DNA from: an uncultured Calditrichota bacterium
GTDB lineage: Bacteria > Calditrichota > Calditrichia > Calditrichales > CAYPHA01
Reading direction: 5' to 3'
Length of the DNA stretch: 64,000 nucleotides
Assembly: GCA_964410215.1 (NCBI GenBank)
Contig: CAYPHA010000012.1
Span: 6,308 to 70,307, forward strand
Part shown: piece after piece, positions 18,220 through 46,410 of the stretch
Layout: the number at the start of each line of letters is the position of its first letter
Position numbering within the stretch: position 1 is the stretch's first letter
Notes under the pieces: generated by a model
Told to the model about the DNA's origin: nothing
Seen by the model: the letters and a program-made list of their open reading frames with translations, nothing else
Database searches by the model: none
Position numbers and translations under genes: made by a program

Positions 18220-19119
18220 TTATATTGCCACCCCTTTAGATTGCAGGCGTTCCAGAAACCCGTCACCCATAATTTTATGGTATTTCAGGCCTACCTCGCG
18301 GATGCTGGCTCCCATGGCAAGTGCGAGCAACTGAAAATAATATATTACCGGTATTTCAAATGTAGTGTTACATTTCCGTGACACCCGCAACTGACCGAGG
18401 TCAAACGAATCGAAGCAGGTCGGACATATGAGTCCGAGGCAATCGGCCCCGGAATCCTTAACTGACTGGAATACCGTATGACTCATATCGATTGTCAGTT
18501 TACTGTCCTGACAGGCTTTACCACAACACATCAGATATTCTTTATGATTGACAGGGGTCGCGCCTGCAGCCTGAAATAAATCCGCCAGAATGGACGGGAC
18601 AACAGGATCCTCAACCTGCATAATTTCGCTGGGTTTGAGCAGGTGACAGCCATAGTGAATGGCAACCCTCAGATCCTCAAACGGGCAGATTATGCTGTTT
18701 TTTATTGCTTCGAGACCGATTTCATTTTTAAGTAATGTTACCAGATGACGTACCGTTACAGTGCCCTTGAATTCATGACCAACAGACTGCAGCCGCCTGT
18801 TTACTTTTGTCCGCAAGCTTTCATCGTGTTTGAGATGGTGGTTAACCTCGCACAGGGTCGAAGTGCATCCGCTGCAGACCGTTATGATATCCAGTTCCTG
18901 TTCTTCTGCCAGGGCGATATTCCGTGCGGCCAGGGTATACCAGTCAAGACGATTACCTGCTTTAAAATAAATGGGATCCGGACAGCAACTGAAACGGGGT
19001 TCATCGACCAGTTCTATCCCGAGCTTTTCAAGAGAAAAACGTACAGCACTTTCCATCTGCGGATATTTAAGGGGAATCATGCATCCCCAAAACGGTATTA
19101 CTTTCATTTTGCAGCCCAT
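18220..19119 (-). CDS. hdrB: heterodisulfide reductase subunit B-like (two CCG cysteine-rich domains)
   Basis: FWGCMIP..FSCCPDP and CGKAC/ICPTC CCG-type motifs. 299 aa. 6 nt after hdrC. Confidence 0.85.
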   Translation of the reverse strand: MGCKMKVIPFWGCMIPLKYPQMESAVRFSLEKLGIELVDEPRFSCCPDPIYFKAGNRLDWYTLAARNIALAEEQELDIITVCSGCTSTLCEVNHHLKHDESLRTKVNRRLQSVGHEFKGTVTVRHLVTLLKNEIGLEAIKNSIICPFEDLRVAIHYGCHLLKPSEIMQVEDPVVPSILADLFQAAGATPVNHKEYLMCCGKACQDSKLTIDMSHTVFQSVKDSGADCLGLICPTCFDSFDLGQLRVSRKCNTTFEIPVIYYFQLLALAMGASIREVGLKYHKIMGDGFLERLQSKGVAI

Positions 19120-19125
19120 ATTGAT

Positions 19126-19590
19126 TTAGTGATGTTTGAGGAGGATTTTCATATCCTCCAGGCAATCCGCTTTAAATTCAGGTAAATTTAATTCCCGACG
19201 ACGTTTCCTGATATGATCCGTTGGTGTCACGGTCAATCCCGTTGTCAGAACCCGTTCCCTGATGTTATTAATCACCGCCGGGCTGGTTTTCCCGGACCGG
19301 GACATATTTTTCAGGGTTATGATCACCTCGATCGGATTTACCGCCTGTGGACATCTCTCATAACAGTTATAACAGTTTGTACAATTCCAGATAAGGGAAT
19401 CAGCACCAATCAGGTCTTCTTCCAATCCATACAGGGCCTTCAGGATTATGGTTCGGGGATTAAATTCGGGTAAAAAACGATGGGCCGGGCAATCGGCTAC
19501 ACAGGCACCACACTGGTAACAATAATTATGTGAAAATCCGCCGAGCATTTTATTGAGCCGGTGTCGAAATTCAAAATTTACACTTTTCAT
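19126..19590 (-). CDS. hdrC: heterodisulfide reductase subunit C-like (2x[4Fe-4S])
   Basis: CYQCGACVADCP and CTNCYNCYERCP motifs. 154 aa. Confidence 0.85.
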   Translation of the reverse strand: MKSVNFEFRHRLNKMLGGFSHNYCYQCGACVADCPAHRFLPEFNPRTIILKALYGLEEDLIGADSLIWNCTNCYNCYERCPQAVNPIEVIITLKNMSRSGKTSPAVINNIRERVLTTGLTVTPTDHIRKRRRELNLPEFKADCLEDMKILLKHH

Positions 19591-19619
19591 ACTATTCCGC
19601 CTATTCGTGAATACGTAAA

Positions 19620-19769
19620 TCAGGCATCCGCTTTCTTTTTTATCTCTGTTCTTCTGACGCTGTTACTTCCGCATTTCGGGCATGCGCGCTCCTGTACTGT
19701 CCCGGGTGTGAAGGTGTCATCATATTCATGCCCGCACCGCAAACATTTGAAATGCCCCGTTTCTTTCAT
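19620..19769 (-). CDS. 49-aa zinc-ribbon protein (FmdB/CxxC_CxxC-like); not in the supplied ORF track
   Basis: My translation is MKETGHFKCLRCGHEYDDTFTPGTVQERACPKCGSNSVRRTEIKKKADA. GGAG sits 7 nt upstream of the ATG. The ORF fills the hdrA-hdrC spacer on the operon strand. Confidence 0.6.
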   Translation of the reverse strand: MKETGHFKCLRCGHEYDDTFTPGTVQERACPKCGSNSVRRTEIKKKADA

Positions 19770-19795
19770 GATAGCGCTCCGGATTAAATGTCTTA

Positions 19796-22270
19796 TTATG
19801 CTGTTGCAACCGCTTGTGCCCCGCTGTGCACTCCCTTTTGCTTTTTTGCCAGCTTTGCCAATTTTTTATCTTCTTCCTTTTCCAGGATAGCGATCGTCTG
19901 TTCAACCTCTTCTTCTGTAACCTGTTGACGCAATTCTTCCAGTTCGTACATCACCCGTGCAAATTTCTGCCCTTCTGCGGCGGATATCCATTCAAGCTGC
20001 AACCGCTCGGGGCGAATACCCCAGCGCTCCAGCTTATTCCATAGTTTTTCGATACGTTTTTGAGTCCACTGCACAGCGCTTATATAGTGACAATCGGAGA
20101 AATGACATCCGGAAACGAGCACCAGCGGTGCCCCTTTGCGAAGCGCATGCAATACAAATTTCTCATCAACCCTTCCGCTGCACATGGTTCGAATAAGTCT
20201 CACGTTCGGCGGGTATTGAAGACGGGAGGTGCCCGCCAGATCACCGCCTGCATAGGAGCACCAGTTACACGCGAATGCGACGATTTTTTCCATGGGATTC
20301 GTATCCAGTATCGCGTCAATCTGTGATATAATCTGTTCATCGGTAAAATGGCGCATCGTGATGGCGTCCGTGGGGCACTCGGCACCGCAGGTTCCGCATC
20401 CCGCGCAGGCAGCCTGAATCACTTCCGGATACATACCTGCTTTCTTGTCCGGTGCAATGATGGCATGATAGGGGCAGACTTTGGCACACATGCCGCAATA
20501 ATTGCAGACGCCTGTATCGATAACCGCCGTAATCGCTTCAATATCAACCTTACCGGCATTTAGAACGATACTTGCCCTTGCCGCGGCTGCGCTTGCCTGT
20601 GTGACACTATCTTTTATATCTTTCGGTGATTCAACGCAACCGGCGTAATAGATTCCTCTCGTGGGTGCATCGACGGGTTTCAATTTCGGGTGCGATTCGA
20701 GCAGAAAACCATCTGTACTGTTTGACAATGTGAGCATGTGCTGGAGGGATTTCATGTCCTTCCGCGGTTCGACTCCGACGGATAGTACCACCATGTCTGC
20801 TTCATGAACTTCCACTTTTCCACGGGTTGTATCTTCTACACTGAGAAACAGGCCCTTCGTTTCCGGATTTTCCCATACATCGCCCGGTATTCCCCTGATA
20901 TACTGCACACCGGCTTCTTTGCTTCTCATAAAAAGATCTTCAAATCCTTTTCCGAATGCACGAATGTCAATGTAAAAGACGGTGCTCTGGATTTCGGGAT
21001 AGTGGTCATGCAGGAGCAGTGTATCTTTAATTGTATTCATGCAACAGATGTTACTGCAGTAAGGATTACCCCTGTTTTCAGAACGGGATCCCACACATTG
21101 AATGAAAGCGATACGTTTTGGACGCGTCGTGTCGGTGGGACGCACGAAATGGCCCTCGGTCGGACCTCCGGCACATATCAGACGTTCAAATTCCATGCTG
21201 GTTATCACATTCTCGAAACTGCGGTAGCCGAATTCATCGAGCTCAGTGGGATCGTAGACGTCCATCCCTGTGGCAACAATGATTGTTCCGACTTCCAGGT
21301 TGATCATTTCATCCTGCATATCGAAATTAATGCAATTCTTCTGACAGGCATCCAGACATTTTCCGCAGGCAATGGGATTATTGCCGAGGCAGTGCTCCAT
21401 ATCGATCAGATAGGCGGAAGGAACGGCCTGCGGCAACTGAATATAGATTGCCTTGCGGGAAGAGAGACCCTGCTGGTATTCATCGGGTAGCGTTACCGGG
21501 CAATCCGCAACACAATCCCCGCATGCCGTGCAGGCCTCTTCATCAACATAACGCGCCTTTTTTCGTATTTTTACATGGAAGTTACCTATAAAACCCGAGA
21601 CATGTTCGACCTCACTATAGGCATAGAGACTGATATTTCGATGTCGACCGACATCCATCATCTTAGGACCGAGAATTCATATGGAACAGTCCATTGTCGG
21701 ATAGGTCTTATCGAGTGCGGCCATGACACCGCCGATGCTGGGTTCTTTTTCCACCAGATGAACCTGGTGCCCGGCATCAGCAAGATCCAGGGCGGCCTGG
21801 ATACCTGCAACACCACCACCTATGACAAGGGCCTGCTTTGTTACCGGTACTTCAGCCTCTCTCTGCGGTTGTAACACCCGCGTCCTGGCAACGGCACTTT
21901 TAACCAGATCCTTGGCTTTTTCGGTGGCACGCTCCTTGTCGCCCTGATGAACCCAACTGCAGTGTTCGCGTAAATTGGCCATTTCATAGAGGTAGGGATT
22001 CAATCCGGCTTCCGCCACGCATTGCCGGAATGTCGGTTCATGAATCTTGGGTGTGCAAGAGGCTACAACGACCCTGTTGAGCTTATGCTCAACAATAGCT
22101 TTCTTAATTTCGTTCTGTCCCGGATCTGCACAGGTATATTTGTTCCGGACAACGGCAACAACATCATCCAGTGTTTCCGCATACTTCGAAACGTCCTCCG
22201 TGTTGACCGTCCCTGCAATATTCAAACCGCAGTCGCAGACAAAAACACCAATTCTTAATTTTTCAGCCAT
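19796..22270 (-). CDS. hdrA: HdrA-like electron-bifurcating flavoprotein with C-terminal MvhD fusion; selenoprotein (UGA at 21677-21679 read as Sec)
   Basis: Track ORFs 21677-22270 and 19796-21661 are in one frame across a single TGA and read [17 protein letters not shown]. Domains seen: N-terminal Cys domain (IGVFVCDCG), FAD motif ([16 protein letters not shown]), inserted and C-terminal ferredoxins, and an MvhD-like tail ([12 protein letters not shown]). Confidence 0.8.
21632..21676 (-). promoter_or_regulatory. candidate bacterial SECIS element downstream of the hdrA UGA
   Basis: mRNA hairpin GAUGUC-GGUC-GACAUC (21655-21640) starts 21 nt after the UGA. A 39-nt stretch is identical to the second Sec site at 26854-26892. 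Confidence 0.55.
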
Positions 22271-22329
22271 ACATTATCTCCCATTAAGGTTGATAATTCA
22301 AGTATTTGCTACTTCTTACTTCTTACTTC

Positions 22330-23478
22330 TCACTGTAAACACTCCGCAACAACCTGTGTAAGGTCTTTTATCAGGAAACCACGCTCTTCGCTGAAAATGT
22401 CACTGTTACGCATTGCACAGGATAAATGAATCTGACACTTCGGGCAGGCGGTAACCAACACATCCGCGCCCGTATTCAGTGCTTCCCGAAGCCGTTGTTC
22501 CTGTATCTGTTTCGAAACCTGTGAACAGTTCATCCATGCCGAAACACCGCAGCAGGTCGCCCGTTTGTGGTGATGGGCCATTTCACTGAATGCGCCCCCT
22601 TTGATTTGGGTCAGGGCAGTACGCGGCGGTTCATAAATACCCAGATGCCTGCCGAGGCGGCAGGGATCCTGGTAAGTGAAATGTTGTTTACCGGATGGCA
22701 GGCTTAGTTTTTTATCCTTCAGCTTTTCCTCTAAAAACTCGCTGATATGATGCACTTCATAGGAAACCGAACCGAGATACTTCGGATACTCCACTTTCAA
22801 TGTACGGTAGCATTCCGGGCAGGATGTGATGATTTTTTTAATTCCCTGTTTAGTAAACTGATCGATATTTGATTCCGCAAGTTTCCGGAAACGTGTAAGG
22901 TCTCCGTTCCAGAAAAAATCGTGTCCGCAACATTTTTCATTCGGTAAAAGTTGTGGGTTTATGCCAAAGTAATTCAATATTCGCAGGGTGCTGACTGCAA
23001 TTTCAATGGGTTCGGCGCCGGTATCCAGGAAAATCGGATCATAGTAGGGCACACATCCGACAAAATAAAGATACTCACTGTCACGACTCGTTTTTAAATC
23101 CGATGAAAGCCAGTCCAGGCGGTTTTGCTGTAGTGTTTCATTTGTCATAATACGTGAGATGGTTTGAATGATCCCACCATGGGAACAGCTGGATTCATCA
23201 AAATGTCCTCCCGCAGACTCCCTGAGAAGTTGCATTAATTCTATATATTTAATATCAGACGGACAGATTGTGTCGCACTGCTGACAGGTCAGACAGCTCC
23301 AGAGATCCGGGGAATGCAGTGTTTGTTCGGTGCTGTTCCTCAGAGATCTGATCAGTATGGCACGTGGGGAAAAGGACGCGGCATAACGGGCAACGGGGCA
23401 TGTTCCTGTGCATTTCCCGCATTCAAGACAGGAATAAGCCCGGGTTTCGCGGATTTTATTCAGTACGGGATCCATCAT
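22330..23478 (-). CDS. HdrD-like soluble Fe-S protein (HdrC-type 2x[4Fe-4S] plus two CCG domains)
   Basis: CLECGKCTGTCP and CLTCQQCDTICP, then the CCG motifs FVGCVPYY..KCCGHDF and DPCRLGRH..TCCGVSAW..CPKC. Confidence 0.8.
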   Translation of the reverse strand: MMDPVLNKIRETRAYSCLECGKCTGTCPVARYAASFSPRAILIRSLRNSTEQTLHSPDLWSCLTCQQCDTICPSDIKYIELMQLLRESAGGHFDESSCSHGGIIQTISRIMTNETLQQNRLDWLSSDLKTSRDSEYLYFVGCVPYYDPIFLDTGAEPIEIAVSTLRILNYFGINPQLLPNEKCCGHDFFWNGDLTRFRKLAESNIDQFTKQGIKKIITSCPECYRTLKVEYPKYLGSVSYEVHHISEFLEEKLKDKKLSLPSGKQHFTYQDPCRLGRHLGIYEPPRTALTQIKGGAFSEMAHHHKRATCCGVSAWMNCSQVSKQIQEQRLREALNTGADVLVTACPKCQIHLSCAMRNSDIFSEERGFLIKDLTQVVAECLQ

Positions 23479-23496
23479 TCGTTCTCACTTGTTAAA

Positions 23497-24000
23497 TTAG
23501 TTGTCCTTGCTTTGCTGCCAGACAGTGTCTTTTTTCTGCGGCGTAATCTGAAATGGGGTAACCGGGTTCGGACCCAGAGTGCGGATCTGTTCCACCATTT
23601 CCCGGACAACAGCTGCAAATTTCGGAAATTCCGCCGCCGATATGAATTCCTGGCGTATCCGCTCTTTTTCGAATCCAAGCATGTATACAATCTGTGCCAG
23701 TTTTTTATACTGCTCGGCCGCTTTACGGGCACCGAAACTGTAGTGACAATCCTCGAAATGACATCCGGACACCAGTACACCATCTGCTCCCATTTCCAGG
23801 GCTTTCAGGACATGGGAGGGATCGACACGTCCCATGCACATGGTGCGAATGATGCGGATATTTGCCGGATACTGAAGCCGGTTTATGCCGGCCGAATCAG
23901 CAGCGGGGTAGCTGCACCAGTTACAGGCGAAAACCACAATCCTGGGTTCGAAGCCGGATTTTTTTTGTCTAACTGCCATAATTATTCCTTTTACAGACAC
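23497..24000 (-). CDS. mvhD: MvhD-like (methyl-viologen-reducing hydrogenase delta subunit family) Fe-S protein
   Basis: [42 protein letters not shown] is the MvhD signature. 3-nt gap after the tandem hdrA gene. Confidence 0.85.
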   Translation of the reverse strand: MSVKGIIMAVRQKKSGFEPRIVVFACNWCSYPAADSAGINRLQYPANIRIIRTMCMGRVDPSHVLKALEMGADGVLVSGCHFEDCHYSFGARKAAEQYKKLAQIVYMLGFEKERIRQEFISAAEFPKFAAVVREMVEQIRTLGPNPVTPFQITPQKKDTVWQQSKDN

Positions 24001-24003
24001 CTG

Positions 24004-27000
24004 TTACACGGTTGTTTCCGTATCCAGCAGAAAGGCCCTGAGCATAGATTCAATCTGCTGATTTTTAAAATGATGAATATCTATAGCTCCCGTCGGGCAG
24101 AAAGTGGCGCATGTCCCGCAGCCTTTACAGAGGGCCTCATTTACGGTCGCGTACCGGGTTCCGTTTTTGTCCGTGACTGAAATTGCGCCATACTCGCAGA
24201 CATCAACACAGGTGCCGCATGCCCTGCACAAACTCTGGTTGATAAAGGAGGTAATCGGTTCCATAAGGATGGTGGACCGGGCCAGTAAGGCATCTACTTT
24301 AGCCGCGACCGCATTGGCCTGGGCGATGGAGTCAGAAATGTCTTTAGGGCTTTGTGCACAACCGCAAATGAAAACACCCTGAATGTTGGTTTCCACCGGA
24401 CCGAATTTTGGATGTTTTTCAAGCAGAAAACCATCCATTCCCACGGGGATCTTAATAAACTGCTGAATTTCCTTATAGCTGTTGGAGGAAGGACGCATGC
24501 CCAGTGAAAGAACCAGCAGGTCAACCGGTAATTCAATCTCTGTTTGCAATCCGATATCTTTAAAACGGATTGCTTCGAGTCTTTTTTGTCCGATCAATTC
24601 GGGTAAACGGTCCGGATGATATTTAATAAAAGTGACGCCAAGACCGCGGGCTTCCCGGTACATCATTTCCGCCTCATGATGGTATACCCGGATATCCCTG
24701 TAAAAAACGGTGACCGCTATGCCGTGTTTTTGAAGAGCAATGGCCTGCTTAATGGCAGCCTGGCAACAGTATCTGGAGCATTCAGGCAGGCCGTCAGGAC
24801 CCCGCGATCCCACACATTGCAAGAAGGCGACACTTTTTACATGGGTATCGATGAATGATACATCTTTATCTTCCGCGAGTAATAATTCCAGGTCCATGTT
24901 GGTAATTACATTGTGATATTTTTTATAGCCGAATTCATTTTTGGATGGCTGGTACAAATCAAAACCTGTGGCAAGCACAATGGCACCTACTTCCAGCGGG
25001 GCGGGACTCTCCAGACCGTCATGCGTTTCCAGACTGACCTTGAAATTACCAACGTAACCCTGTATGTCCGTTATGGAAGCACCCGTATAAAAGGTTATTT
25101 TATTCTGTTCCAGTTCGTTCAGTTTTGCCTGGATTAAATCGTGTCCGGTCATGCCGCTGGGATAAAGTGTCTGTAATTTTGCCACCCAGCCACCCGGCGT
25201 GTTTTCACGCTCCACGATGTAAACGCGGTAATTCCGTCTGGATAATTGAATTGCCGTTTCGATTCCGGCAATACCCCCGCCAATGACGAGGACATTGTGG
25301 CCGATTTCCAGTTCCTGCGCTTCCAGCGGTTCCAGATTGCGAACTTTAGCAACCGCCATCCGGACAAGGTCTTTTGCTTTCCTCGTGCCCCCTTCATGGT
25401 CATCATGATGCACCCACGAGCACTGATCCCGGATATTGGCCATTTCGAGCAGGTACGGATTCAGTCCGGCCTTACCAAGTGTTTCACGAAAAATCGGTTC
25501 GTGGGTTCTGGGCGTACATGCGGCGATGACCACCCGATTCAGTCGGTTTTCCAGTATGTTATCCTGCAAAAAACGCTGGGTACTTTCGGAACAGGCAAAC
25601 ATCAAATCTTCCGCGTAGATCACGTCAGGGAGGCTCAGAGCGTATTTTTTAACGGATTCGACATCGATTGTACCCGCTATATTCGAGCCGCAGTGACAAA
25701 CAAATACCCCGATTCGCGGCGGCCCTGAAAAATCATAATCCGGGATTTCTTCTTTTGATTCCGGTAATTTATATGCGTTCATATACTGGGCTGCACGTAT
25801 AGCTGCCCCGGAAGCTTCTGCGATGGAATCGGTGATATCCTTGGGACCGGTTGCACAGCCACATAAAAACACACCGTCTTTCGTGGAAGAAAGCGGGTCA
25901 CCACAACTGTCGCGTTCCCTGAAAAATCCCCGGGAATCCGCTTCAATACCGAGCTGTCTGGCGAGATCGAGGGAACCTGAAGAGGGAACCAGTGCTTCGG
26001 AAAGAATCACCATCCCCGTTCGGTGACGTTCCGTTTCTCCGGTCTCTATATTTTCACTCAGTATGATGAGGTCTCCGGTTCCGGGATCTTCTTCAATCCG
26101 GGAAGGCTTACCCTTTATCAGGTTAATCTGTCCCTCTTTCAGAACCCGTTGATAGAATTGTTCGAAACCTTTACCGAAGGCACGAATGTCAATGTAAAAG
26201 ATATCAATCTGCACATCCGGGTACATTTCGCGGATTAAAAGGGAACTTTTAAGTGCATTCATGCAACAAATGCGGCTGCAATAGGGGATATCACGATTCA
26301 TGCATCGGGATCCGACGCATTGTATAAAGGATACCCGTCCTGGTGGTTTCTGATCTGTAAAACGTAATAATTTTCCTGCAGAAGGCCCGCTTGAGCTGAG
26401 TAGACGCTCCATTTCGATACTGTTGACAACATTCTGAAAACGCGTATAACCATACTCACTGGCTTCCCTGGGATCAAAATAGTCAATACCGGTGGCCACG
26501 ATTATGGCGGCAATGTCGAGCTCAATTATTTCATCATGCATATCCAAATCAATACAGTTCTTCTGACAAACATCGGCACATTTTCCGCAGGCTATGGGAT
26601 TTGTACCCAGACAGTCCAGGTCATTCCTGATATAGGCCGCCGGAACGGCCTGTGAAAAAGGGGAGTAGATGGCATGCCGGAGAGATAAACCTTCATCAAA
26701 TTCATTCGGCTGAAATACCGGGCAGATTTCCGCACAATCTCCGCAGGCTGTACATTCCGCCTGATTTACAAAGCGGGCTATATTCCTGATTTTCACCTTA
26801 AAATTCCCCGCGCTGCCTTTCACTTCTTCAAGGATGCTGTTGGTATAAAGTCGGATATTTCGATGTCGACCGACATCCATCATCTTAGGACCAAGAATTC
26901 ATATGGCACAATCCATACTGGGAAACGTTTTATCCAATTTTGCCATTGTGCCGCCGATACTGGGATTGCGCTCGACCAGATAGACCTGGAACTGCGCATC

Positions 27001-27105
27001 AGCAAGGTCCAGGGCAGCCTGAATACCGGCAATGCCGGCACCGATTACCAGGGCCCCTTTTTCTTTGTTGGATTTGGAAACCATTGAAATGCATCCCCTT
27101 GTCAT
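24004..27105 (-). CDS. hdrA: tandem (double-module) HdrA-like flavoprotein, about 1033 aa; selenoprotein (UGA at 26899-26901 read as Sec)
   Basis: Track ORFs 26899-27105 and 24004-26883 are in one frame across a single TGA and read [17 protein letters not shown]. Two dinucleotide-binding motifs are present ([16 protein letters not shown] and [15 protein letters not shown]). The start overlaps the OFOR gamma stop (ATGA); the alternative ATG is at 27084. Confidence 0.8.
26854..26898 (-). promoter_or_regulatory. candidate bacterial SECIS element downstream of the second hdrA UGA
   Basis: The same GAUGUC-GGUC-GACAUC hairpin (26877-26862) occurs at the same distance from the UGA as in the first locus. 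Confidence 0.55.
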
Positions 27106-27707
27106 TTCGAAATTTTTCGGGTTGAAGCGGCTTTTTCCCGTGTAGGTTTCAATAAATTTTTACCATACTCAAATCCTGTATCAAACGCTTTAAGATTTAA
27201 TTCTTCCGTCCCCGGCGGGACGGATGTTTCAACCGCCTTGCGGGTGGCTTCATATGTGGTGACACCGGTGATTGCCGAAAAGAAACCCACGGTGATGATA
27301 TTCATAATGATTTTTCTGCCCATCTCTTCCGCCAGACGGGTCGCGGGAATGGCATAGCATTTAATACCTTTGGGAAGGGAATCGGGCTGAACCAGATCCT
27401 TTTCTGTCAGCATAATCCCCCCTTTTTTTATTTCTTTACTGAACTTGTCATAAGCGTCTACAGACAGAATAATGGCGATGTCAGGTACGATCAGGTAAGG
27501 ATATAGGATAGGAGTAGATGAAATGAGTACCTGTGCGGAGCAGGCACTCCCTCGTGCTTCCGGACCAAAACTCTGGATCAGGGTAGAATATTTATTATCA
27601 TAAATAGCTGCGGCTTTGCCGATGATATATCCGGATAGAATAATGCCCTGACCGCCAAAGCCGGCGATACGGATTTCCGTTTTATCACTCATGATTTTCA
27701 ACCCCAT
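27102..27707 (-). CDS. 2-oxoacid:ferredoxin oxidoreductase gamma subunit (set 1)
   Basis: [15 protein letters not shown] motif. Overlaps the beta-subunit stop. Probable start MSDKTEIR at 27692. Confidence 0.85.
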
Positions 27708-28608
27708 ACGGTTTAAATTTTTCTCCGAGTTTGTTTTTCATGTGTTCATTATATTTTTCCAGATAAGAGGGTTTTTCGATATCGATGAATTTTCCGACTT
27801 TTATCTCGGTCTGGAATTGTATGTCAACATCACGCGGGTCGGCCCCGTTTACAATAACAGAATTATCGTGATAAAATTTCATAAGGTCCAGGCCGGTGCC
27901 AAGCTTATTTCTGCGGGCGTAAAGTGTCGTGCACGGACAGATTACTTCGACGAAGGAAAAGCCTTTTTTGTGTAAGGCTTCCGTAATGGAATTGGTGAGT
28001 CGGCGAACGTGTAATGCCGTCCATCGTGCGACATAAACCGCACCGCATGAAGCGGTGAGCGCAGGAAGGTTAAAGGGGGATTCGTAATTGCCATAGGGCG
28101 TTGTTGTCGCTATGGCCGTGGGGGGCGTCGTAGGGGCAACCTGGCCGCCTGTCATGGCATAAATAAAATTGTTGATGCAAATAACTGTCAGATCAATATT
28201 ACGCCTCGCCGTATGAATCAGGTGATTGCCTCCAATGGCCGATAGGTCGCCATCCCCGCTGATAACAACCACTTTCAGCTTCGGATTAGCGAGTTTAAGA
28301 CCAACGGCGAAAGGAATGGCTCTCCCGTGTGTAGTATGAAACGAGTCCTGTTTAATATAACCGGCAACTCTGCCGCTGCATCCGATTCCGGAAACGACAC
28401 AGATATCTTTCCGCTCCAGGGAAGATTTTTTAACGGCTTCGATGAAGCAGGTGACCACCGTACCTATACCGCATGTGGAGCACCATATGTGTGGAATTCG
28501 GTCCATGCGCAACCAGGGTTCAAGGGGGTGTTCGACTGTCCCGGGAGACGGGGACCGTTTGACGGTGCGCGTGGAATGTTTTATTTCATCCAGCCCGGCT
28601 GTTTTCAT
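27685..28608 (-). CDS. 2-oxoacid:ferredoxin oxidoreductase beta subunit, TPP-binding (set 1)
   Basis: WCSTCGIG, GIGCSGR and GDGDLSAIGGNHLIHTARRN TPP motifs. N- and C-terminal extensions relative to set 2. Confidence 0.85.
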   Translation of the reverse strand: MKTAGLDEIKHSTRTVKRSPSPGTVEHPLEPWLRMDRIPHIWCSTCGIGTVVTCFIEAVKKSSLERKDICVVSGIGCSGRVAGYIKQDSFHTTHGRAIPFAVGLKLANPKLKVVVISGDGDLSAIGGNHLIHTARRNIDLTVICINNFIYAMTGGQVAPTTPPTAIATTTPYGNYESPFNLPALTASCGAVYVARWTALHVRRLTNSITEALHKKGFSFVEVICPCTTLYARRNKLGTGLDLMKFYHDNSVIVNGADPRDVDIQFQTEIKVGKFIDIEKPSYLEKYNEHMKNKLGEKFKPYGVENHE

Positions 28609-29765
28609 TGAAATACCTCCTGAATCGCTTTAAAAATATCTTCCGGATTGTGAACCGTACCACCCCCGTGTGGTACCAGAATGGTTTTACATTTACCTGC
28701 CGCGCACCGTTCTACTTCAAGCGCGATTTGACCATAGTTCATTTCAGGTACGACAAAGGCTTTCACTTTTTCTGCTAATGTTCTGATTTGTTCTTCAGGA
28801 AATGGCCATACGGACAGCAATCGGATCCTCCCGATTTTCTTTATCCCTGCTTCATGGGCCAGCTGAATACCGCGAAGAGCCACCCGGGAGGTAATGCCGT
28901 AGGAAATGACCACAACATCAGCATCCGCGATATTGTCCTCTTCCAGCAGGTATATGTTATCGGAATTTTTTCGTATTTTATCCACGATCCGTCTGACAAG
29001 TTTTTCCTGTGCGACCCAGTTCATCACCGGGTATCCTTTTTCATCATGTGTCAGTCCTGTAACATGAAAGAAATAACCGTCACCTGCTTTAACCATGTCA
29101 GGTACCAGGTTTTCCCCGGTCTCATACGGGAGATAGTCATCCGGTTCCTTCTCAGTAAATGTACGTACGACGATATCGATATCTTCAGCAGGAGGGATAA
29201 TTACTTTTTCCGTCATATGCCCGACACACTCGTCCATCATTACAAAAACAGGCACACGATACTGTTCGGAAAGGTTAAATGCCTTGATAGTCAGGTCAAA
29301 ACACTCCTGGGGAGAATTCGGGCAGAGAGCGATGATTTCATAGTCTCCGTGTGACCCCCACCTGGCCTGCATGATATCAGCCTGGCCCGGGAGCGTTGGC
29401 AGACCGGTAGATGGTCCTCCTCTCTGTACATTAACCACGACACAGGGCGTTTCGAGCATGGCAGCCAGACCAATGTTTTCCATCATAAGTGAAAAGCCGG
29501 GCCCGGACGTTACGGTCATGGATTTTACGCCTGTCCAGGAACCACCAACCACAGCCGCCATCGATGCCAGTTCATCCTCCATTTGTATAAACATACCGCC
29601 GATAGATGGAAACCGTTCGGCAACGCGTTCGGCCACTTCTGTGGATGGTGTGATCGGATATCCGGCAAAAAAACGGCACCCGGCCGCAAGTGCGCCCTCT
29701 GCGCATGCCTTATCCCCGTCGAGATAATGCATCCCCGTAAGTACACCGGCAGGATCAGTTTTCAT
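28605..29765 (-). CDS. 2-oxoacid:ferredoxin oxidoreductase alpha subunit (set 1)
   Basis: FFAGYPITPSTE, TSGPGFSLMMEN and RGGPSTGLPT motifs. ATGA overlap with beta. Confidence 0.85.
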   Translation of the reverse strand: MKTDPAGVLTGMHYLDGDKACAEGALAAGCRFFAGYPITPSTEVAERVAERFPSIGGMFIQMEDELASMAAVVGGSWTGVKSMTVTSGPGFSLMMENIGLAAMLETPCVVVNVQRGGPSTGLPTLPGQADIMQARWGSHGDYEIIALCPNSPQECFDLTIKAFNLSEQYRVPVFVMMDECVGHMTEKVIIPPAEDIDIVVRTFTEKEPDDYLPYETGENLVPDMVKAGDGYFFHVTGLTHDEKGYPVMNWVAQEKLVRRIVDKIRKNSDNIYLLEEDNIADADVVVISYGITSRVALRGIQLAHEAGIKKIGRIRLLSVWPFPEEQIRTLAEKVKAFVVPEMNYGQIALEVERCAAGKCKTILVPHGGGTVHNPEDIFKAIQEVFQ

Positions 29766-30054
29766 GGACCTCCTCCTCTTTTAAAACACAAAAAATGGCG
29801 AATTCAGGACACAGCATTTCGCATAACTGGCAGTGAACGCAGGCTTGAGCATCGGTGACGACAGGTGGGTGATATCCTTTTGTATTAAACTCCTGAGAGA
29901 GCTCCAGGATATCTTTTGGGCAATACGCAACGCAGAATCCACATCCTTTACAGCGCTCGCGTAGTATATGCACTTCACCCTGAGGAACCTTGACGCGGTT
30001 AATATCCAAAGGTGTACGCCAATATCTCATGAGATACCTCGATATTTGGTACAA
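29755..30054 (-). CDS. 2-oxoacid:ferredoxin oxidoreductase delta subunit (2x[4Fe-4S] ferredoxin, set 1)
   Basis: CKGCGFCVAYCP and CVHCQLCEMLCP motifs. The ATG at 30030 (MRYWRTPL) has a GAGG RBS and may be the true start. Confidence 0.8.
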   Translation of the reverse strand: MYQISRYLMRYWRTPLDINRVKVPQGEVHILRERCKGCGFCVAYCPKDILELSQEFNTKGYHPPVVTDAQACVHCQLCEMLCPEFAIFCVLKEEEVHEN

Positions 30055-30405
30055 CAGAATAGCCAGAACAATGTTCTAATGAACGATCGTCGGATTAAAA
30101 TTCTGATTCTGATTGAGAATGCTTGGTCAAAATAAAAGGTGCAGGTGGTTCTGTGATAGTTGGTATTATAATACGATTCAATGAAATAATTAGAGTGGGA
30201 ACAGGTTTAATCGTTTTTTCCGAACGTATAACCATCATAATTACGGATCGCAATCTAATAGTTTTATCGGACAAAAAGAGAAGTCACTGATAAAAATTTA
30301 TGACACTTACCAATTATTGTCAATAAAATTCTCGGTTTGTGACTTCGCGCCCGGAATGTCTTTCACTAAAATAAGGAATTAACTGTATCCTCCATTGATG
30401 GTAAA

Positions 30406-30421
30406 GTCAAGAACTGTGCCA
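30406..30421 (-). promoter_or_regulatory. weak candidate sigma-54 (-24/-12) element facing the OFOR-Hdr operon
   Basis: Minus strand reads TGGCACAGTTCTTGAC (TGGCAC-N5-TTGA). It lies about 350-390 nt upstream of the delta-subunit start. Confidence 0.25.
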
Positions 30422-30567
30422 GCGGCGTGTGTTTTGAATAAAAATTCTTAACATGCTGTTATTGTGCAAGTTAACTTTTAAATATCCGGGGAAATCCATA
30501 TCATCCATGATGATATATTCTTAATTCTAAAAGAATACCGGGTTCAGGTCTCAATTATTGGAATTCA

Positions 30568-30589
30568 ACAGCCGGGGCTGTTTTTTTTA
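30568..30589 (+). terminator. orphan intrinsic terminator inside the 0.7-kb spacer
   Basis: ACAGC-CGGG-GCTGT stem-loop followed by T8. No annotated plus-strand ORF lies upstream of it. Confidence 0.45.
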
Positions 30590-30608
30590 CGATAGTGGTT
30601 GTAATTGC

Positions 30609-30638
30609 TTGAACATCGGTGATGATTTAGTGTATATT
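30609..30638 (+). promoter_or_regulatory. candidate sigma-70-type promoter for the GNAT gene
   Basis: TTGAAC-18 nt-TATATT, about 130 nt upstream of the ATG at 30771. Confidence 0.3.
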
Positions 30639-30761
30639 ACCGGTAGATTTTCTCCTGTTTACCTGGAATCTAAAACACTTACCTTCCCGCATCGTGCTGA
30701 ACTATGAATAAAACCGGTATCCGAATGACCTTTAAAGATTACACGTATTATCTAATCGGAG

Positions 30762-32322: not shown

Positions 32323-32562
32323 ATGATCAGAGGAAAAAATATGAGTAATCTGACACAAATTGAAATAAATGAATCCTGGTGCAAGGGATGTGAAATATGC
32401 GTTGAAGTTTGTCCGAAAGATGTTCTTAAAATGGAAAATTTTGTGGCAAAAGTTGACAATCTGGACAACTGCATTGAGTGCATGCTCTGCGAAGTATTAT
32501 GTCCTGATTTCGCCATTGTCGTCCACACATCCAAAGAAAAGAAAAAAAATATTTCCCGATAA
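32323..32562 (+). CDS. 2-oxoacid:ferredoxin oxidoreductase delta subunit (set 2)
   Basis: CKGCEICVEVCP and CIECMLCEVLCP motifs. The probable start is the ATG at 32341 (MSNLTQ) after GAGGAAAAAAT. Confidence 0.8.
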   Translation: MIRGKNMSNLTQIEINESWCKGCEICVEVCPKDVLKMENFVAKVDNLDNCIECMLCEVLCPDFAIVVHTSKEKKKNISR

Positions 32563-32573
32563 GGAGTAATGCA

Positions 32574-33707
32574 TTGGAACCAAGAACCTTGATGATGCAG
32601 GGCAATGTTGCGGTCGCGGAAGGTGCTATCGACGCCGGATGCCGGTTTTACGCCGGTTACCCGATCACACCATCCTCTGAAATTGCAGAACACCTCAGTA
32701 AACGACTGCCGCGGATTGGTGGCAAATTTATCCAGATGGAAGATGAAATATCAGCGATGGGTGCTGTCATCGGCGCTTCACTTGGTGGCGTAAAATCACT
32801 GACGGCCACCAGCGGACCGGGGTTTTCCCTGAAACAGGAAAATATCGGCTATGCCTGTATTACGGAAGTTCCGGTTGTCATAATTAATGTGATGCGGGGC
32901 GGTCCGAGTACCGGGTTGCCGACACTGCCTTCACAGGGCGATGTGATGCAGGCCCGCTGGGGTACGCATGGAGATCATCCCATTATCGCTTTGACGCCCT
33001 CCGGCGTTCGTGAAACGTATGATATGACGGTTAAAGCCTTCAATATGTCGGAAAAGTACCGTGTTCCGGTAATCATTTTGCTGGATGAAATTATCGGGCA
33101 TGTTCATGAAAAAGTAACCTTGCCGGATCCTTCGGAACTGGAAATTTTTAACCGAAAAAAACCCAGCGTACCTCCAGAAGAATACCTGCCATACCGCATC
33201 GATGAATCGATGATTCCGGAAATGGCCAATTTTGGCGAAGGGTACCGCTATCATGTTACGGGTTTGGTACATGATGAAACCGGATTTCCGACAAACGAAA
33301 CCGTCAAAATAGAAGGGATGCTGGAACGCCTGAACAGTAAGCTGGACAAATATAAAGACGAAATACTCGATGTGGAAGAAGTTAACACGGAGGATGCGGA
33401 AGTGGGTATTGTCGCGTATGGATCCAGTGCCCGTTCTGCCAAGCAGGCCTTGTCAAAGGCCCGGGAAGAGGGCATACCTGCAGGTATGATTCGCATTAAG
33501 ACCCTCTGGCCTTTTCCGACGGAAATGATTTATGAGTTTGCACGGAAGGTACGCCATATCGTTGTGCCGGAATTAAATCTCGGGCAGATCGCCCATGAAG
33601 TGGAACACGCGGTCAGGGGGCAGACTACAATATGCCGTGTCAATAAAATTTCGGGAGATCCCATTCATCCTGATGAAATTCTGAACAAACTGAAGGAGTG
33701 TCGTTAA
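32574..33707 (+). CDS. 2-oxoacid:ferredoxin oxidoreductase alpha subunit (set 2)
   Basis: FYAGYPITPSSE, TSGPGFSLKQEN and RGGPSTGLPT motifs. By eye roughly 60 percent identical to set 1 alpha over the N-terminal half. Confidence 0.85.
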   Translation: MEPRTLMMQGNVAVAEGAIDAGCRFYAGYPITPSSEIAEHLSKRLPRIGGKFIQMEDEISAMGAVIGASLGGVKSLTATSGPGFSLKQENIGYACITEVPVVIINVMRGGPSTGLPTLPSQGDVMQARWGTHGDHPIIALTPSGVRETYDMTVKAFNMSEKYRVPVIILLDEIIGHVHEKVTLPDPSELEIFNRKKPSVPPEEYLPYRIDESMIPEMANFGEGYRYHVTGLVHDETGFPTNETVKIEGMLERLNSKLDKYKDEILDVEEVNTEDAEVGIVAYGSSARSAKQALSKAREEGIPAGMIRIKTLWPFPTEMIYEFARKVRHIVVPELNLGQIAHEVEHAVRGQTTICRVNKISGDPIHPDEILNKLKECR

Positions 33708-33710
33708 ATC

Positions 33711-34520
33711 ATGGATTATATGTACTATCTTAGAAAAGATAAATTTCCGCATATCTGGTGCGCGGGATGCGGCGATGGGATTGTATTGAAGGCGATATTG
33801 AGAGCGATTAATGACCTCGGATGGGAAAAGGATAATATTGCCATGGTTTCCGGCATCGGGTGCTCGAGCAGAACACCGGGATATGTCGATTTTAATACAC
33901 TCCATACGACACACGGGCGGGCTATTCCCTTTGCTACAGGTCTGAAAATGGCCCGGCCCGATCTGAACGTCATCGTTGTCACCGGCGACGGGGATGCGAC
34001 GGCTATCGGTGGAAATCACCTGATTCATGCCGCCAGAAGAAATATCAACCTGAATGTCGTTCTGTATAATAATAATATCTACGGCATGACCGGAGGGCAG
34101 GTGTCGCCCACCACACCCATCGGTGATTTTGCCACGACCGCTCCATTCGGGGGGATAGAAAACACGTTTAATATCTCTGAATTAACCATAGCAGCAGGGG
34201 CTTCCTATGTTGCGCGCTGTACGGCGTATCATGCCAATATTTTAATGAAACTGCTTGAAAAAGGCTTCAGGAAAAACGGCTTTTCTCTTGTTGAAGTCAT
34301 GTCACCCTGTCCCACCGCGTATGGAAAAATTAATAAAAAGGGCAGCCCGATGGATATGATAATAAATCAGAAACATCAGGCTGTGCGTATTGAACAGGCA
34401 AAAAAAATGTCTCCGGAAGAGTTGCAGAACAGAGTCGTGATCGGTACGCTGATGGATCGCGAGCTTCCGGAATATGTGAACACCTACGAGAAAGTTATTT
34501 CACAGGCACAACGAAGTTAA
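33711..34520 (+). CDS. 2-oxoacid:ferredoxin oxidoreductase beta subunit (set 2)
   Basis: WCAGCGDG, GIGCSSR and GDGDATAIGGNHLIHAARRN motifs. Confidence 0.85.
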   Translation: MDYMYYLRKDKFPHIWCAGCGDGIVLKAILRAINDLGWEKDNIAMVSGIGCSSRTPGYVDFNTLHTTHGRAIPFATGLKMARPDLNVIVVTGDGDATAIGGNHLIHAARRNINLNVVLYNNNIYGMTGGQVSPTTPIGDFATTAPFGGIENTFNISELTIAAGASYVARCTAYHANILMKLLEKGFRKNGFSLVEVMSPCPTAYGKINKKGSPMDMIINQKHQAVRIEQAKKMSPEELQNRVVIGTLMDRELPEYVNTYEKVISQAQRS

Positions 34521-34534
34521 GAAGGAATTGAAAA

Positions 34535-35071
34535 ATGAGCTTTCGCTATGAAATCCGACTCAGTGGCGCAGGGGGACAGGGATTAATCCTTGTCGGCAAA
34601 ATCCTGGCAGAAGCAGCCGCTATATACGATGGAAATAATGCAACCCAGAGTCAATCTTACGGACCTGAAGCCCGGGGTGGCGCGAGTCGCTCAGAAGTCA
34701 TCATCAGTGACGGGGATATCGATTATCCAAAAGCATCTCATATTAACCTGCTTCTTGCCATGACCCAGGAAGCCGTGGATAAATATGCCGGCGATGTTAT
34801 TCAGGATGGTATCATTGTGGCAGATTCCAATTACGTGAAGGATGCCCCGGAAGGGGATTTTAAATTTTACAGTTATCCCATTACCGAAGTAGCTGAAAAA
34901 AAAGTGGGGAAAAAAATCGTGGCCAATATAGTTGCATTGGGTATTATTGAACGGCTTTCAAATATTGTTTCGGAACCGGCTTTGATCAATGCCATACGTG
35001 CCCGGATTCCCAAAGGAACCGAGGAAATGAATATCAGCGCTTTTAAAATCGGTCAGGAACTGGTGAAATAA
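34535..35071 (+). CDS. 2-oxoacid:ferredoxin oxidoreductase gamma subunit (set 2)
   Basis: IRLSGAGGQGLILVG and YGPEARGG motifs. Confidence 0.85.
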   Translation: MSFRYEIRLSGAGGQGLILVGKILAEAAAIYDGNNATQSQSYGPEARGGASRSEVIISDGDIDYPKASHINLLLAMTQEAVDKYAGDVIQDGIIVADSNYVKDAPEGDFKFYSYPITEVAEKKVGKKIVANIVALGIIERLSNIVSEPALINAIRARIPKGTEEMNISAFKIGQELVK

Positions 35072-41024: not shown

Positions 41025-41039
41025 CAACGAATTAATATT

Positions 41040-43127: not shown

Positions 43128-43131
43128 GATC

Positions 43132-43932: not shown

Positions 43933-44044
43933 AGACATCAAAAACAACTTTACTTGTTTTACTCAATTAAGTATCTTTATACTTTATTCTCTTGCAATTG
44001 CACACGATTTACCAACGTAACAATCATATAAAACGGGAGTTGAT

Positions 44045-46078: not shown

Positions 46079-46091
46079 TAAATAACAGGTA

Positions 46092-46118
46092 CAGGCTGGC
46101 TGGCTGTCGGCCAGCCTG
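46092..46118 (+). terminator. GC-rich hairpin after the OPT gene (possible terminator, poor U-tract)
   Basis: CAGGCTGGC / GCCAGCCTG 9-bp stem with a 9-nt loop. The following sequence AATTATT is only weakly T-rich. Confidence 0.35.
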
Positions 46119-46182
46119 AATTATTGACTAGAGTGCGGCGATTCCCTAAATTCATTACATATTCAAGCCGCAATGATTCTCA

Positions 46183-46383: not shown

Positions 46384-46410
46384 ATCCTGCTTTTCAGGAG
46401 GCACTCACGA

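Follow-up and report, generated by a model that had tools for sequence, protein, structure and literature searches.

Can a 2-oxoacid:ferredoxin oxidoreductase (OFOR) be wired directly to the electron-bifurcating flavin of a heterodisulfide reductase (Hdr)? The question is raised by an eleven-gene cluster on the minus strand of a 64,000-nucleotide stretch of DNA, hereafter the window, from an uncultured Calditrichota bacterium (GenBank assembly GCA_964410215.1, contig CAYPHA010000012.1, positions 6,308 to 70,307), in which the four subunit genes of an OFOR run directly into genes for Hdr subunits and MvhD-type adaptors. Bifurcation by HdrA powers the formation of formylmethanofuran from CO2 and, as recently shown, the reduction of aromatic rings, by means of enzymes that are hard-wired to it; if the wiring considered here is true, OFOR would be a third kind of enzyme attached in this way to the low-potential arm of HdrA. 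In the reductive tricarboxylic acid (TCA) cycle and in anaerobic acetate assimilation, the thermodynamic bottleneck is the reductive carboxylation of acyl-CoA, and such a wiring would offer a way past it to organisms without obvious access to sufficiently reduced ferredoxin; operating in reverse, it would explain how peptide fermenters such as Calditrichota shed high-potential electrons. The linkage of OFOR and Hdr genes is robust, and from it we infer the complex and its chemistry. It is found in abundant sediment lineages, namely Calditrichota and Zixibacteria-like bacteria and, in another form, relatives of Bipolaricaulota/Acetothermia HdrA. No description of an OFOR-Hdr unit was found in the literature searched, where the genes are annotated piecemeal (KOR, Hdr, Mvh); the closest remark concerns a large ferredoxin-dependent cluster of Zixibacteria RBG-1, which includes Mvh/Hdr, pyruvate:ferredoxin oxidoreductase (POR) as well as 2-oxoglutarate:ferredoxin oxidoreductase (OGOR) genes (PMC3903129).

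Conservation of the OFOR-Hdr gene linkage

The first-pass annotation of this DNA had drawn attention to the contact between the OFOR gamma gene and an Hdr gene, and this contact is kept in relatives: of 28 informative related loci, 27 have an Hdr gene as the immediate 3' neighbour of OFOR gamma, a figure that counts loci and not phylogenetically independent events. Related loci, which are mostly contigs of metagenomes or metagenome-assembled genomes (MAGs) with flanks of 10 kb or less, were collected by a scan for tandem HdrA with one genome per species (53 loci, onto which the proteins of the window were mapped). An independent metagenome scan, seeded with OFOR gamma only and unbiased as to Hdr, gave 21 loci, 15 of them informative; an Hdr gene lies immediately 3' of gamma in 14 of these 15, and the succession of gamma and the fused tandem HdrA (HdrAA) occurs in 11 metagenome loci. 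The contexts of a KSB1 (P0022) and a Zixibacteria (P0118) relative end before gamma and are uninformative.

All seven informative loci from Calditrichota/Caldithrix-type MAGs have the order delta-alpha-beta-gamma, HdrAA, MvhD, HdrD-like, at 70-82% protein identity to the window, and four of the 11 metagenome loci (L061, L063, L065 and L068) keep the gene order of the window as far as the fetched sequence extends. Among the complete or near-complete genomes with the cluster is CP070707.1. The order is permuted to OFOR alpha-beta-gamma, HdrC, HdrB, HdrAA, MvhD, HdrD-like, HdrA-MvhD in L074-L076, where gamma is 60% and HdrAA 52% identical, and it is kept despite insertions (a HicAB pair and a PNPOx-like gene) in L057/L058. 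The alpha subunit of the latter groups with a protein named Zixibacteria, and the HdrAA of this Zixibacteria-like lineage is 52% identical. The overlap of gamma with the HdrA gene, as ATGA or over 14 nt, recurs across lineages. The linkage survived rearrangements that are independent of one another and gave three or four distinct gene orders, and a functional link between OFOR and Hdr, as opposed to chance, is strongly backed by this synteny, kept despite permuted order and 50-60% protein identity. As to the inserted genes themselves, which are small and mobile-looking, HicB, HicB and HicA lie between HdrAA and MvhD in L057 (15785-16421), and Peptidase_M78 and DUF4411 genes lie between the HdrD-like gene and HdrA-MvhD in L074 (17706-19332); in both cases the cluster is unbroken.

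The eleven genes had been taken for one fixed unit, and this part of the first reading does not survive the comparison. The cluster consists of a conserved seven-gene core (the OFOR, HdrAA, MvhD and the HdrD-like gene) and an often associated HdrA2BC-type module: the half formed by HdrA-MvhD, the zinc ribbon, HdrC and HdrB was not found within 1.7-9 kb downstream in L001, L002, L004, L007, L019 and L066, and the HdrA-MvhD half of L003 follows only after about 6 kb of genes for 3-hydroxyacyl-CoA dehydrogenase, thiolase-like, HMG-CoA-synthase-like and DUF35-type proteins. This acyl-CoA stretch of two Caldithrix-type relatives (L003, 14811-20902; L004, 10936-17811) comprises, on the same strand after the core, 3-hydroxyacyl-CoA dehydrogenase, two thiolase-like, HMG-CoA-synthase-like and DUF35/OB-fold genes, with a carboxyltransferase in addition in L004; it is a hint that the high-potential side may connect to acyl-CoA metabolism.

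A second architecture is found in four sister clusters (L078, 6763-19457; L080, 7287-21959; L081; L082, GCA_025060415.1), the gamma of L078 being 50% identical to that of the window. The contigs of L080-L082 were found through homologues of the L078 HdrA, whose named homologues at 60-70% identity are mostly from Bipolaricaulota/Acetothermia. The genes stand in the order SucCD (beta, alpha), OFOR-gamma, HdrA, MvhD, MvhG, MvhA, hydrogenase maturation protease, HdrC, HdrB, iron-sulfur (FeS) protein, TfrA-like flavoprotein, OFOR-delta/alpha/beta and class I fumarase. SucCD scores above its curated cutoff, gamma overlaps HdrA by 14 nt, the HdrA is single and of the Cys type, and the best matches of MvhA and of the flavoprotein are VhuA and TfrA, respectively. 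The Hdr/Mvh/Frd genes separate OFOR gamma from the other OFOR genes, an arrangement hard to explain by co-regulation alone. By its gene content, the operon combines an H2-dependent bifurcating Mvh-Hdr with the reductive TCA branch that leads from malate/fumarate to 2-oxoglutarate. In Methanothermobacter, a thiol:fumarate reductase (TfrAB), Mvh-Hdr and 2-oxoglutarate synthase cooperate, and the sister clusters show the same logic within one operon. The potentials are about -414 mV for H2, about +30 mV for fumarate and about -500 mV for the OFOR; since the hydrogenase would be the donor and the fumarate reductase the high-potential acceptor, the OFOR of the sister clusters would be the low-potential partner. 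No description of this operon as one unit was found in the searchable literature.

A Theionarchaea MAG (L008, 5724-15758) carries the order HdrC-HdrB-HdrA_MvhD-tandem HdrA-MvhD-MvhG-MvhA, that is, the double Hdr set of the window with a [NiFe] hydrogenase in the place of the OFOR and without the HdrD-like gene. MvhD is here paired with MvhGA, and the partner of the free MvhD would therefore be a hydrogenase rather than the OFOR. MvhG and MvhA are present in L078, L080-L082 and L008 and have no match in the window or in the Calditrichota-type loci; a local Mvh-Hdr hydrogenase complex is thereby ruled out for the window.

No OFOR lies within 10 kb of the tandem-HdrA loci of anaerobic methanotrophic archaea (ANME-2), Theionarchaea, Planctomycetota, Acidobacteriota, Chloroflexota and 'Deltaproteobacteria'. 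In 24 of the 27 listed tandem-HdrA loci without OFOR (L020-L043, from MAGs of the last four of these groups), the Hdr genes form an MvhD-HdrAA-FeS trio, and the 135 neighbouring open reading frames (ORFs) include 17 DsrE/DsrF-like, 14 DrsE_2, four TusA and seven ArsR-type regulator genes, which points to a sulfur-relay-linked use of the Hdr module in these bacteria.

Anatomy of the eleven genes and their proteins

The gene set, strand, order and spacing first described for the cluster were reproduced with a program-made list of the ORFs of the window and with Pfam and NCBIfam scans of the minus-strand ORFs, from which the domain calls of Table 1 are taken.

Table 1. Genes of the OFOR-Hdr cluster and the region upstream of it, in coordinates of the window.
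Feature	Coordinates	Strand	Remarks
AT-rich intergenic region	30055..30760	.	~700 nt, ~40% GC, common to the cluster and a divergent GNAT gene
OFOR delta	29755..30030	-	91 aa; Pfam Fer4_7/Fer4; 71-81% identical in relatives
OFOR alpha	28605..29765	-	386 aa; POR_N 3.8e-74 and PFOR_II 6.9e-17
OFOR beta, thiamine pyrophosphate (TPP)-binding	27685..28608	-	307 aa; TPP_enzyme_C 1.4e-32
OFOR gamma	27102..27707	-	201 aa (196 aa from second ATG); POR domain 5.8e-29
Fused tandem HdrA (HdrAA)	24004..27105	-	1034 codons, 1033 aa; predicted selenoprotein
MvhD-type [2Fe-2S] adaptor	23497..24000	-	167 aa from GTG; FlpD 1.2e-50
HdrD-like (HdrC+HdrB fusion)	22330..23478	-	382 aa; CCG 1.2e-29, Fer4_8
HdrA-MvhD fusion (HdrA2-type)	19796..22270	-	825 codons, 824 aa; predicted selenoprotein; FlpD 1.9e-45, Fer4 and FAD domains
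Zinc ribbon CxxC...CxxC	19620..19769	-	49 aa; Zn_ribbon_8/FmdB-family matches under cutoff
HdrC-like, 2x[4Fe-4S]	19126..19590	-	154 aa; Fer4_8/9; TIGR03290 93 bits, under cutoff
HdrB-like, two CCG-type Cys motifs	18220..19119	-	299 aa; CCG 1.9e-23; TIGR03288 292 bits against a cutoff of 345

From delta to HdrB the junctions measure -11, -4 (ATGA), -23, -4 (ATGA), +3, +18, +59, +26, +29 and +6 nt. Both ATGA overlaps noted earlier, that of alpha and beta (28605-28608) and that in which the gamma stop overlaps the HdrAA start (27102-27105), proved real when the junctions were checked. The statement that the cluster has no internal terminator also stands, because all the terminator-like matches on the minus strand lie inside coding sequence and their number (21) is near the shuffle expectation (14.5 +/- 4.1). 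The best promoter-like match of the cluster, TTGACA-17-TAAATT (30323-30295, minus strand), lies in the upstream intergenic region, and a weak one, TTGAAT-17-GATAAT (22301-22273), within the 59-nt gap. The delta gene had been placed correctly at the upstream end of the cluster; the TTG at 30054 then given as its start is not retained, an ATG at 30030 preceded by GAGG being most likely. Likewise, the MvhD gene is likely to start from an ATG at 23979.

The OFOR agrees with four-subunit enzymes of the Kor/Oor type (PDB 1yd7, 8ys5, 6n2n) in the domains of all four subunits: POR_N and PFOR_II in alpha, a TPP domain in beta, a POR domain in gamma and two [4Fe-4S] sites in delta. The delta subunit, whose two CxxCxxCxxxCP motifs read CKGCGFCVAYCP and CVHCQLCEMLCP, is likely the electron port of the enzyme. 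Alpha scores 577 bits (cutoff 411) against the NCBIfam model PRK08659 for the 2-oxoacid:acceptor oxidoreductase alpha subunit, and among solved structures 1yd7 is the nearest to it. None of the OGOR-specific NCBIfam cutoffs is reached (alpha 369 bits against a cutoff of 579, beta 257 against 364, delta 72 against 125), the best match of delta being OGOR_delta under its cutoff; the enzyme differs from the Kor/Oor-type OFORs as a diverged paralogue below the OGOR equivalog cutoffs that is welded to Hdr genes. The 2-oxoglutarate/succinyl-CoA couple is nonetheless its most likely one, judging from the SucCD genes of the sister clusters and the nearest models of the family.

A second, complete OFOR (delta2-alpha2-beta2-gamma2; 32323-35071, plus strand) lies 2.3 kb off in divergent orientation. 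Its subunits are 38-50% identical to the Hdr-linked ones and score higher on OGOR/Oor models, and a similar second OFOR adjoins the cluster in L019 and L068. The presence of this standalone copy in the same genome suggests that the Hdr-linked one is specialised. Relative to the standalone paralogue, the Hdr-linked OFOR has short extensions on beta, gamma and delta (about 26 aa at the N-terminus of beta and about 18 aa at the C-terminus of gamma). Alpha subunits are 59% identical among Hdr-linked copies and 50% identical to the standalone paralogues of the same genomes; in a neighbour-joining tree of alpha, from a small sample biased by the way in which the loci were collected, the Hdr-linked alphas of both architectures stand together and the standalone paralogues of the same genomes stand apart. 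The nearest OFOR alpha is 98% identical (Logan), and the named relatives are from Calditrichia, Calditrichota, KSB1 and Zixibacteria. The gene immediately 3' of the standalone OFOR (35132-38104, plus strand) encodes a 990-aa protein with only weak GlnD-type nucleotidyltransferase similarity, far below curated cutoffs.

HdrAA aligns to the HdrA of M. wolfeii (5odc_A) with E = 2e-208, in three stretches that span HdrA residues 3-653: residues 16-357 of HdrAA correspond to 144-480 of HdrA, 462-619 to 3-160, and 857-1029 to 482-653. The first half (about 16-440) consists of a thioredoxin reductase (TrxR)-like flavin adenine dinucleotide (FAD) domain with an inserted 2x[4Fe-4S] ferredoxin domain at about 115-190, a selenocysteine (Sec69) aligned to Cys197 of the solved HdrA, and K286, aligned to Lys409, which we take to be the position of the lysine near the flavin N5 in 5odc. 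The second half opens with the N-terminal cluster domain (462-600), after which come another FAD domain and a C-terminal ferredoxin domain (about 955-1010); its FAD domain has lost the inserted ferredoxin domain and the Cys197 equivalent and has kept the lysine (K786). Both halves carry GxGxxG, as their self-alignment shows, and the protein has in total one inserted ferredoxin, one N-terminal and one C-terminal ferredoxin domain. HdrAA thus combines an FAD domain, an alignment over all four domains of HdrA, the Cys197 equivalent as selenocysteine (Sec) and the lysine of the flavin site. Cys197 of HdrA ligates the cluster of the partner's N-terminal domain (PMC9012536), and the lysine near the flavin N5 is Lys280 in BamE, the fused HdrA of class II benzoyl-CoA reductase (bioRxiv 10.64898/2026.04.10.717634).

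The fusion protein is a complete HdrA, with N-terminal domain, Sec, and inserted and C-terminal ferredoxin domains, joined to MvhD, and its counterparts in relatives show 72-87% identity. In the NCBIfam scan, which covered the free MvhD and not the fusion, a match to the HdrA2 model came from this MvhD alone, within the model's C-terminal MvhD region. The free MvhD, with cysteines at 26, 29, 55, 80 and 85, scores 128 bits against VhuD, under the cutoff. The HdrD-like protein has two [4Fe-4S] sites and two complete CCG motifs (C142..C183C184G..C220xxC223 and C273..C309C310G..C345xxC348), with TfrB as best NCBIfam match (149 bits, under cutoff), and HdrB has the motifs CX31CCX35CXXC and CX39CCGX32CXXC; the motifs are intact in both proteins, and because both CCG motifs are complete each could hold the two non-cubane clusters of a disulfide-reducing site. 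A zinc ribbon that is 63-75% identical to that of the window is encoded in the corresponding position of L061, L063 and L065.

The two HdrA genes had been read as single frames, 27105-24004 and 22270-19796, which they are only if an in-frame TGA is read through in each (26899-26901 in HdrAA and 21677-21679 in HdrA-MvhD, both on the minus strand); this had been missed, and the mechanical ORF list splits each gene in two at its TGA. Both TGAs lie within the motif MDC(A/S)I-U-ILGPK, at the position of Cys197 in the alignment to 5odc_A; the predicted Sec is residue 69 in HdrAA and residue 198 in HdrA-MvhD. The nucleotides 3' of the two TGAs are near-identical and include a hairpin, GAUGUC-GGUC-GACAUC, which resembles a selenocysteine insertion sequence (SECIS) and lies 21-38 nt 3' of the TGA (about 26861-26878 in HdrAA). 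Across relatives the hairpin reads GGAUGYC-GGUC-GRCAUCC and is paired in 97% of cells, and one pair covaries (UA in 18 cases, CG in four, UG in four and unpaired in none), the U-to-C change on one side replacing Val by Ala and the partner change of A to G being silent. At this codon 32 homologous gene copies have TGA, and five that are more distant (L011, L078 and L080-L082) have TGC. An in-frame UGA at the Cys position of homologues, followed by a hairpin, is what a bacterial selenoprotein gene is expected to have, and both HdrAA and HdrA-MvhD are predicted selenoproteins. This prediction draws on conservation and on one covarying pair, because single-sequence folding 3' of each TGA was no better than shuffles (z = -0.3 to -0.5) and Rfam at gathering thresholds gave no match in the window, no SECIS family included. 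Selenocysteine machinery was not found within the window.

A proposed place of the OFOR in the electron path

The reading that we favour, to which we give slightly less than an even chance, attaches the OFOR to the ferredoxin side of a bifurcating flavin of the HdrA type. It is drawn by analogy with solved HdrA systems, among them class II benzoyl-CoA reductase of Geobacter metallireducens, Bam[(BC)2DEFGHI]2, whose cryo-EM structure shows that the flavin of the first TrxR domain of BamE bifurcates and that its inserted ferredoxin domain leads to the FeS subunit of the tungsten enzyme, while the HdrD-like BamD is the high-potential exit, to electron-transfer flavoprotein (ETF) (bioRxiv 10.64898/2026.04.10.717634). 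HdrAA would accordingly be an asymmetric dimer in one chain, with a single bifurcating FAD in its first half; the inserted ferredoxin domain would be the low-potential exit, at which the OFOR would dock through its 2x[4Fe-4S] delta subunit, in the place of free ferredoxin, in the manner of BamBC in class II benzoyl-CoA reductase and of Fmd in methanogen Hdr supercomplexes; the CCG proteins (the HdrD-like protein, and HdrCB when present) would form the high-potential branch, and MvhD the mid-potential port, its partner being probably a [NiFe] hydrogenase of group 3c or a different module whose genes lie elsewhere. In the forward direction, mid-potential electrons would be split, one going to a disulfide-type or other high-potential acceptor and the other to the reductive carboxylation of acyl-CoA; backward, the oxidation of 2-oxoacids would pull thiol-level (or ETF-level) electrons up to a mid-potential carrier. 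Reductive carboxylation would be expected when the mid-potential donor is abundant, and confurcation when peptides or acyl-CoA are fermented, a mode with which the beta-oxidation-like neighbours of L003/L004 would agree. Gene content, the inventory of domains, cysteines and selenocysteines, the kept linkage and the sister architecture are what the sequences show. The physical complex, its docking site, substrate and direction, the MvhD partner and the CCG substrate are all what we infer from this comparison.

Domain scans confirmed across the whole window that it encodes no hydrogenase, formate dehydrogenase or NuoEF-type module, and the view that the OFOR is the only candidate partner enzyme therefore holds locally; the comparators suggest that the partner module of MvhD is encoded elsewhere. 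Caldithrix abyssi has a group 3c hydrogenase with Hdr genes elsewhere in its genome (PMC5317091), which makes a hydrogenase acting in trans behind the MvhD of the window plausible. The genome of that species lists two KOR loci far apart, and the window is probably not from it. Nothing encoded in the window could be nominated as the CCG substrate: no ETF, DsrC/TusE, lipoyl-carrier or thioredoxin-like gene was found there. A separate gene at 60397-62403 (plus strand) encodes 668 aa with a hydrophobic, apparently multi-helix N-terminal part of about 270 aa, 2x[4Fe-4S] and two CCG domains; its product looks like a membrane-anchored HdrD-like protein (HdrF/DsrMK/ETF:quinone-oxidoreductase-like) and could provide a connection between the quinone pool and the same carrier, be it of the thiol/disulfide or the ETF type. 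It is not followed by ETF genes.

Several observations weigh against the favoured wiring. The evidence consists of genes for every member, and adjacency is no proof of a physical complex. The MvhD port is left open, no donor or acceptor for MvhD being encoded nearby in the lineage of the window, and the docking site is carried over from distant relatives, in which gamma is about 50% identical and HdrA single, not tandem. The second FAD site keeps K786, unlike the non-bifurcating site of BamE, and the one-flavin picture may be too simple. The substrate is uncertain: the OGOR equivalog cutoffs are missed, and the cores of L003 and L004 precede acyl-CoA, not TCA, genes. One locus (L073) has an OFOR without any Hdr gene in 4.7 kb downstream, and ANME-2 and many bacteria carry the tandem-HdrA/MvhD/FeS module without OFOR, which makes it clear that elsewhere the Hdr part operates with free carriers.

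This last point leads to the explanation that the enzymes are co-regulated and physically separate, the OFOR acting on the free ferredoxin pool and one or two soluble Hdr complexes acting with a thiol/disulfide couple, with clustering only because all the genes are ferredoxin-dependent. We consider it unlikely, although the OFOR-free modules of ANME-2, Theionarchaea, Planctomycetota, Acidobacteriota and others speak for it, the OFOR retains a ferredoxin-like delta subunit as free-standing OFORs do, and the cluster of ferredoxin enzymes of Zixibacteria RBG-1 (Mvh/Hdr, POR, OGOR) was described without invoking a complex (PMC3903129). What argues against separate enzymes is the translational coupling of gamma and HdrA, kept across lineages, together with the interleaving of the sister OFOR genes with Hdr/Mvh/Frd genes and the specialisation suggested by the standalone paralogue. 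The first-pass annotation had left two options for a physical complex, with the OFOR either as electron donor or as recipient of bifurcated electrons, and the coexistence of MvhGA and OFOR in the sister clusters makes the second the better supported.

Were the OFOR the input module, docked via MvhD, the oxidation of 2-oxoacids at about -500 mV would feed the HdrA flavin, from which one electron would pass to a disulfide-type acceptor and the other to an acceptor more negative than ordinary ferredoxin; no gene for an enzyme requiring potentials below that of ferredoxin lies nearby, and the MvhD-MvhG-MvhA genes found together with OFOR genes in the sister clusters indicate that the OFOR needs no MvhD port. 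Half of the low-potential electrons of the OFOR would moreover be wasted, judging from standard potentials. Such an input is improbable for these reasons, and this estimate already allows for the OFOR being, within the window, the only non-Hdr redox enzyme in the cluster, for the Theionarchaea double-Hdr set, where MvhGA stands in the place that the OFOR has in bacteria and which is readable as a replacement at the MvhD port, and for the precedent of class II benzoyl-CoA reductase, in which a fused HdrA receives ferredoxin-level input. Less probable still, to the point of being a marginal candidate, is a non-bifurcating 2-oxoacid:disulfide (or :fumarate/ETF) oxidoreductase, in which HdrAA/MvhD would do no more than conduct electrons from the OFOR to the CCG-domain reductases and convert between one- and two-electron steps. 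The bifurcating site keeps its hallmarks (the Lys409 equivalent, the Cys197 equivalent as Sec, the inserted ferredoxin domain and MvhD), there would be no need for the double Hdr set and the MvhD proteins, and without coupling most of the free energy of the step from about -500 mV to a disulfide or fumarate would be lost; these stand against the best family match of the HdrD-like protein to TfrB, a thiol:fumarate reductase subunit, its intact pair of CCG sites, and the second FAD of the fused HdrA, which is structural in BamE.

The wiring of the OFOR to the low-potential branch can be carried one step further, to a ferredoxin-free OFOR-Hdr supercomplex. The sister operon would then encode one H2-driven machine for the reductive TCA branch from fumarate to 2-oxoglutarate, composed of hydrogenase, Hdr, Tfr-like fumarate reductase, succinyl-CoA synthetase, OFOR and fumarase, in which fumarate reduction would pay for reductive carboxylation, and the Calditrichota version would be its Sec-dependent, tandem-HdrA derivative. 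We put this forward tentatively, as a proposal with somewhat less in its favour than against it.

Known systems and further genes of the window

The analogy, drawn at the outset, to Hdr supercomplexes that feed a low-potential enzyme is apt, since class II benzoyl-CoA reductase uses a fused HdrA, MvhD and an HdrD-like protein. Its BamDEF module resembles the window in these three components, the last being a CCG protein, and in the presence of Sec in the module; BamE and HdrAA are alike in domain design, a likeness at the level of the design and taken from the described structure. They differ in the hard-wired partner, which is the tungsten AOR-type BamBC there and would be a TPP-dependent OFOR here, in the HydBC-like BamGHI input, which the window cluster lacks, in the place of Sec, which is in HdrA at the Cys197 position and not in MvhD as in Bam (the MvhD of the window is of ordinary length), and in the second FAD site, which retains its lysine here and is non-bifurcating in BamE. 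A class II benzoyl-CoA reductase is ruled out by the lack of AFOR or NuoEF/HydBC-like domains in the cluster or the window.

The supercomplexes MvhADG-HdrABC/Fmd of methanogens (PDB 5odc, 7bkb, 8rvu, 9sw2-6; PMC13518236, PMC13580544) are like the window in HdrA chemistry, Sec or Cys197, MvhD, HdrB and HdrC, and the common principle would be that bifurcated low-potential electrons pass straight to a CO2-fixing enzyme. The window differs from them in having no hydrogenase, a tandem asymmetric HdrA, an additional HdrD-like protein and an OFOR in place of Fmd/Fwd, and in belonging to a bacterium without a known CoM/CoB pathway. No solved structure is closer to the proteins of the window than classical HdrA and OFORs of the Pyrococcus and OGOR types. 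With respect to the Tfr logic of Methanothermobacter, the cluster of the window lacks TfrA, SucCD, fumarase and hydrogenase, and its TfrA/TfrB scores are all below curated cutoffs.

The fused HdrA of ANME-2 (Chadwick et al. 2022, PMC9012536) occurs with the same set of HdrD-like, HdrC, HdrB, tandem HdrA and MvhD genes and is 38-41% identical to HdrAA; unlike the window, these clusters have no OFOR. They share the Hdr half, and a ferredoxin-free OFOR-Hdr supercomplex, if true, would give a first functional handle on them. HdrA2B2C2 of Methanosarcina acetivorans (PMC5296606) resembles the region 19796-22270 together with HdrC and HdrB in the architecture of its HdrA-MvhD fusion; the module of the window differs in being bacterial (F420 is not expected), in having Sec for Cys197 and in its extra zinc-ribbon gene.

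Elsewhere in the window, a signalling run on the plus strand (40347-48711) begins the list of further genes with a Crp-type regulator and a PAS histidine kinase; it also encodes a pair of cyclic nucleotide (cNMP)-binding/DUF4388 proteins, of which one has a receiver domain. Two transport genes lie in its midst, for a TauE/SafE exporter and for an OPT oligopeptide transporter.

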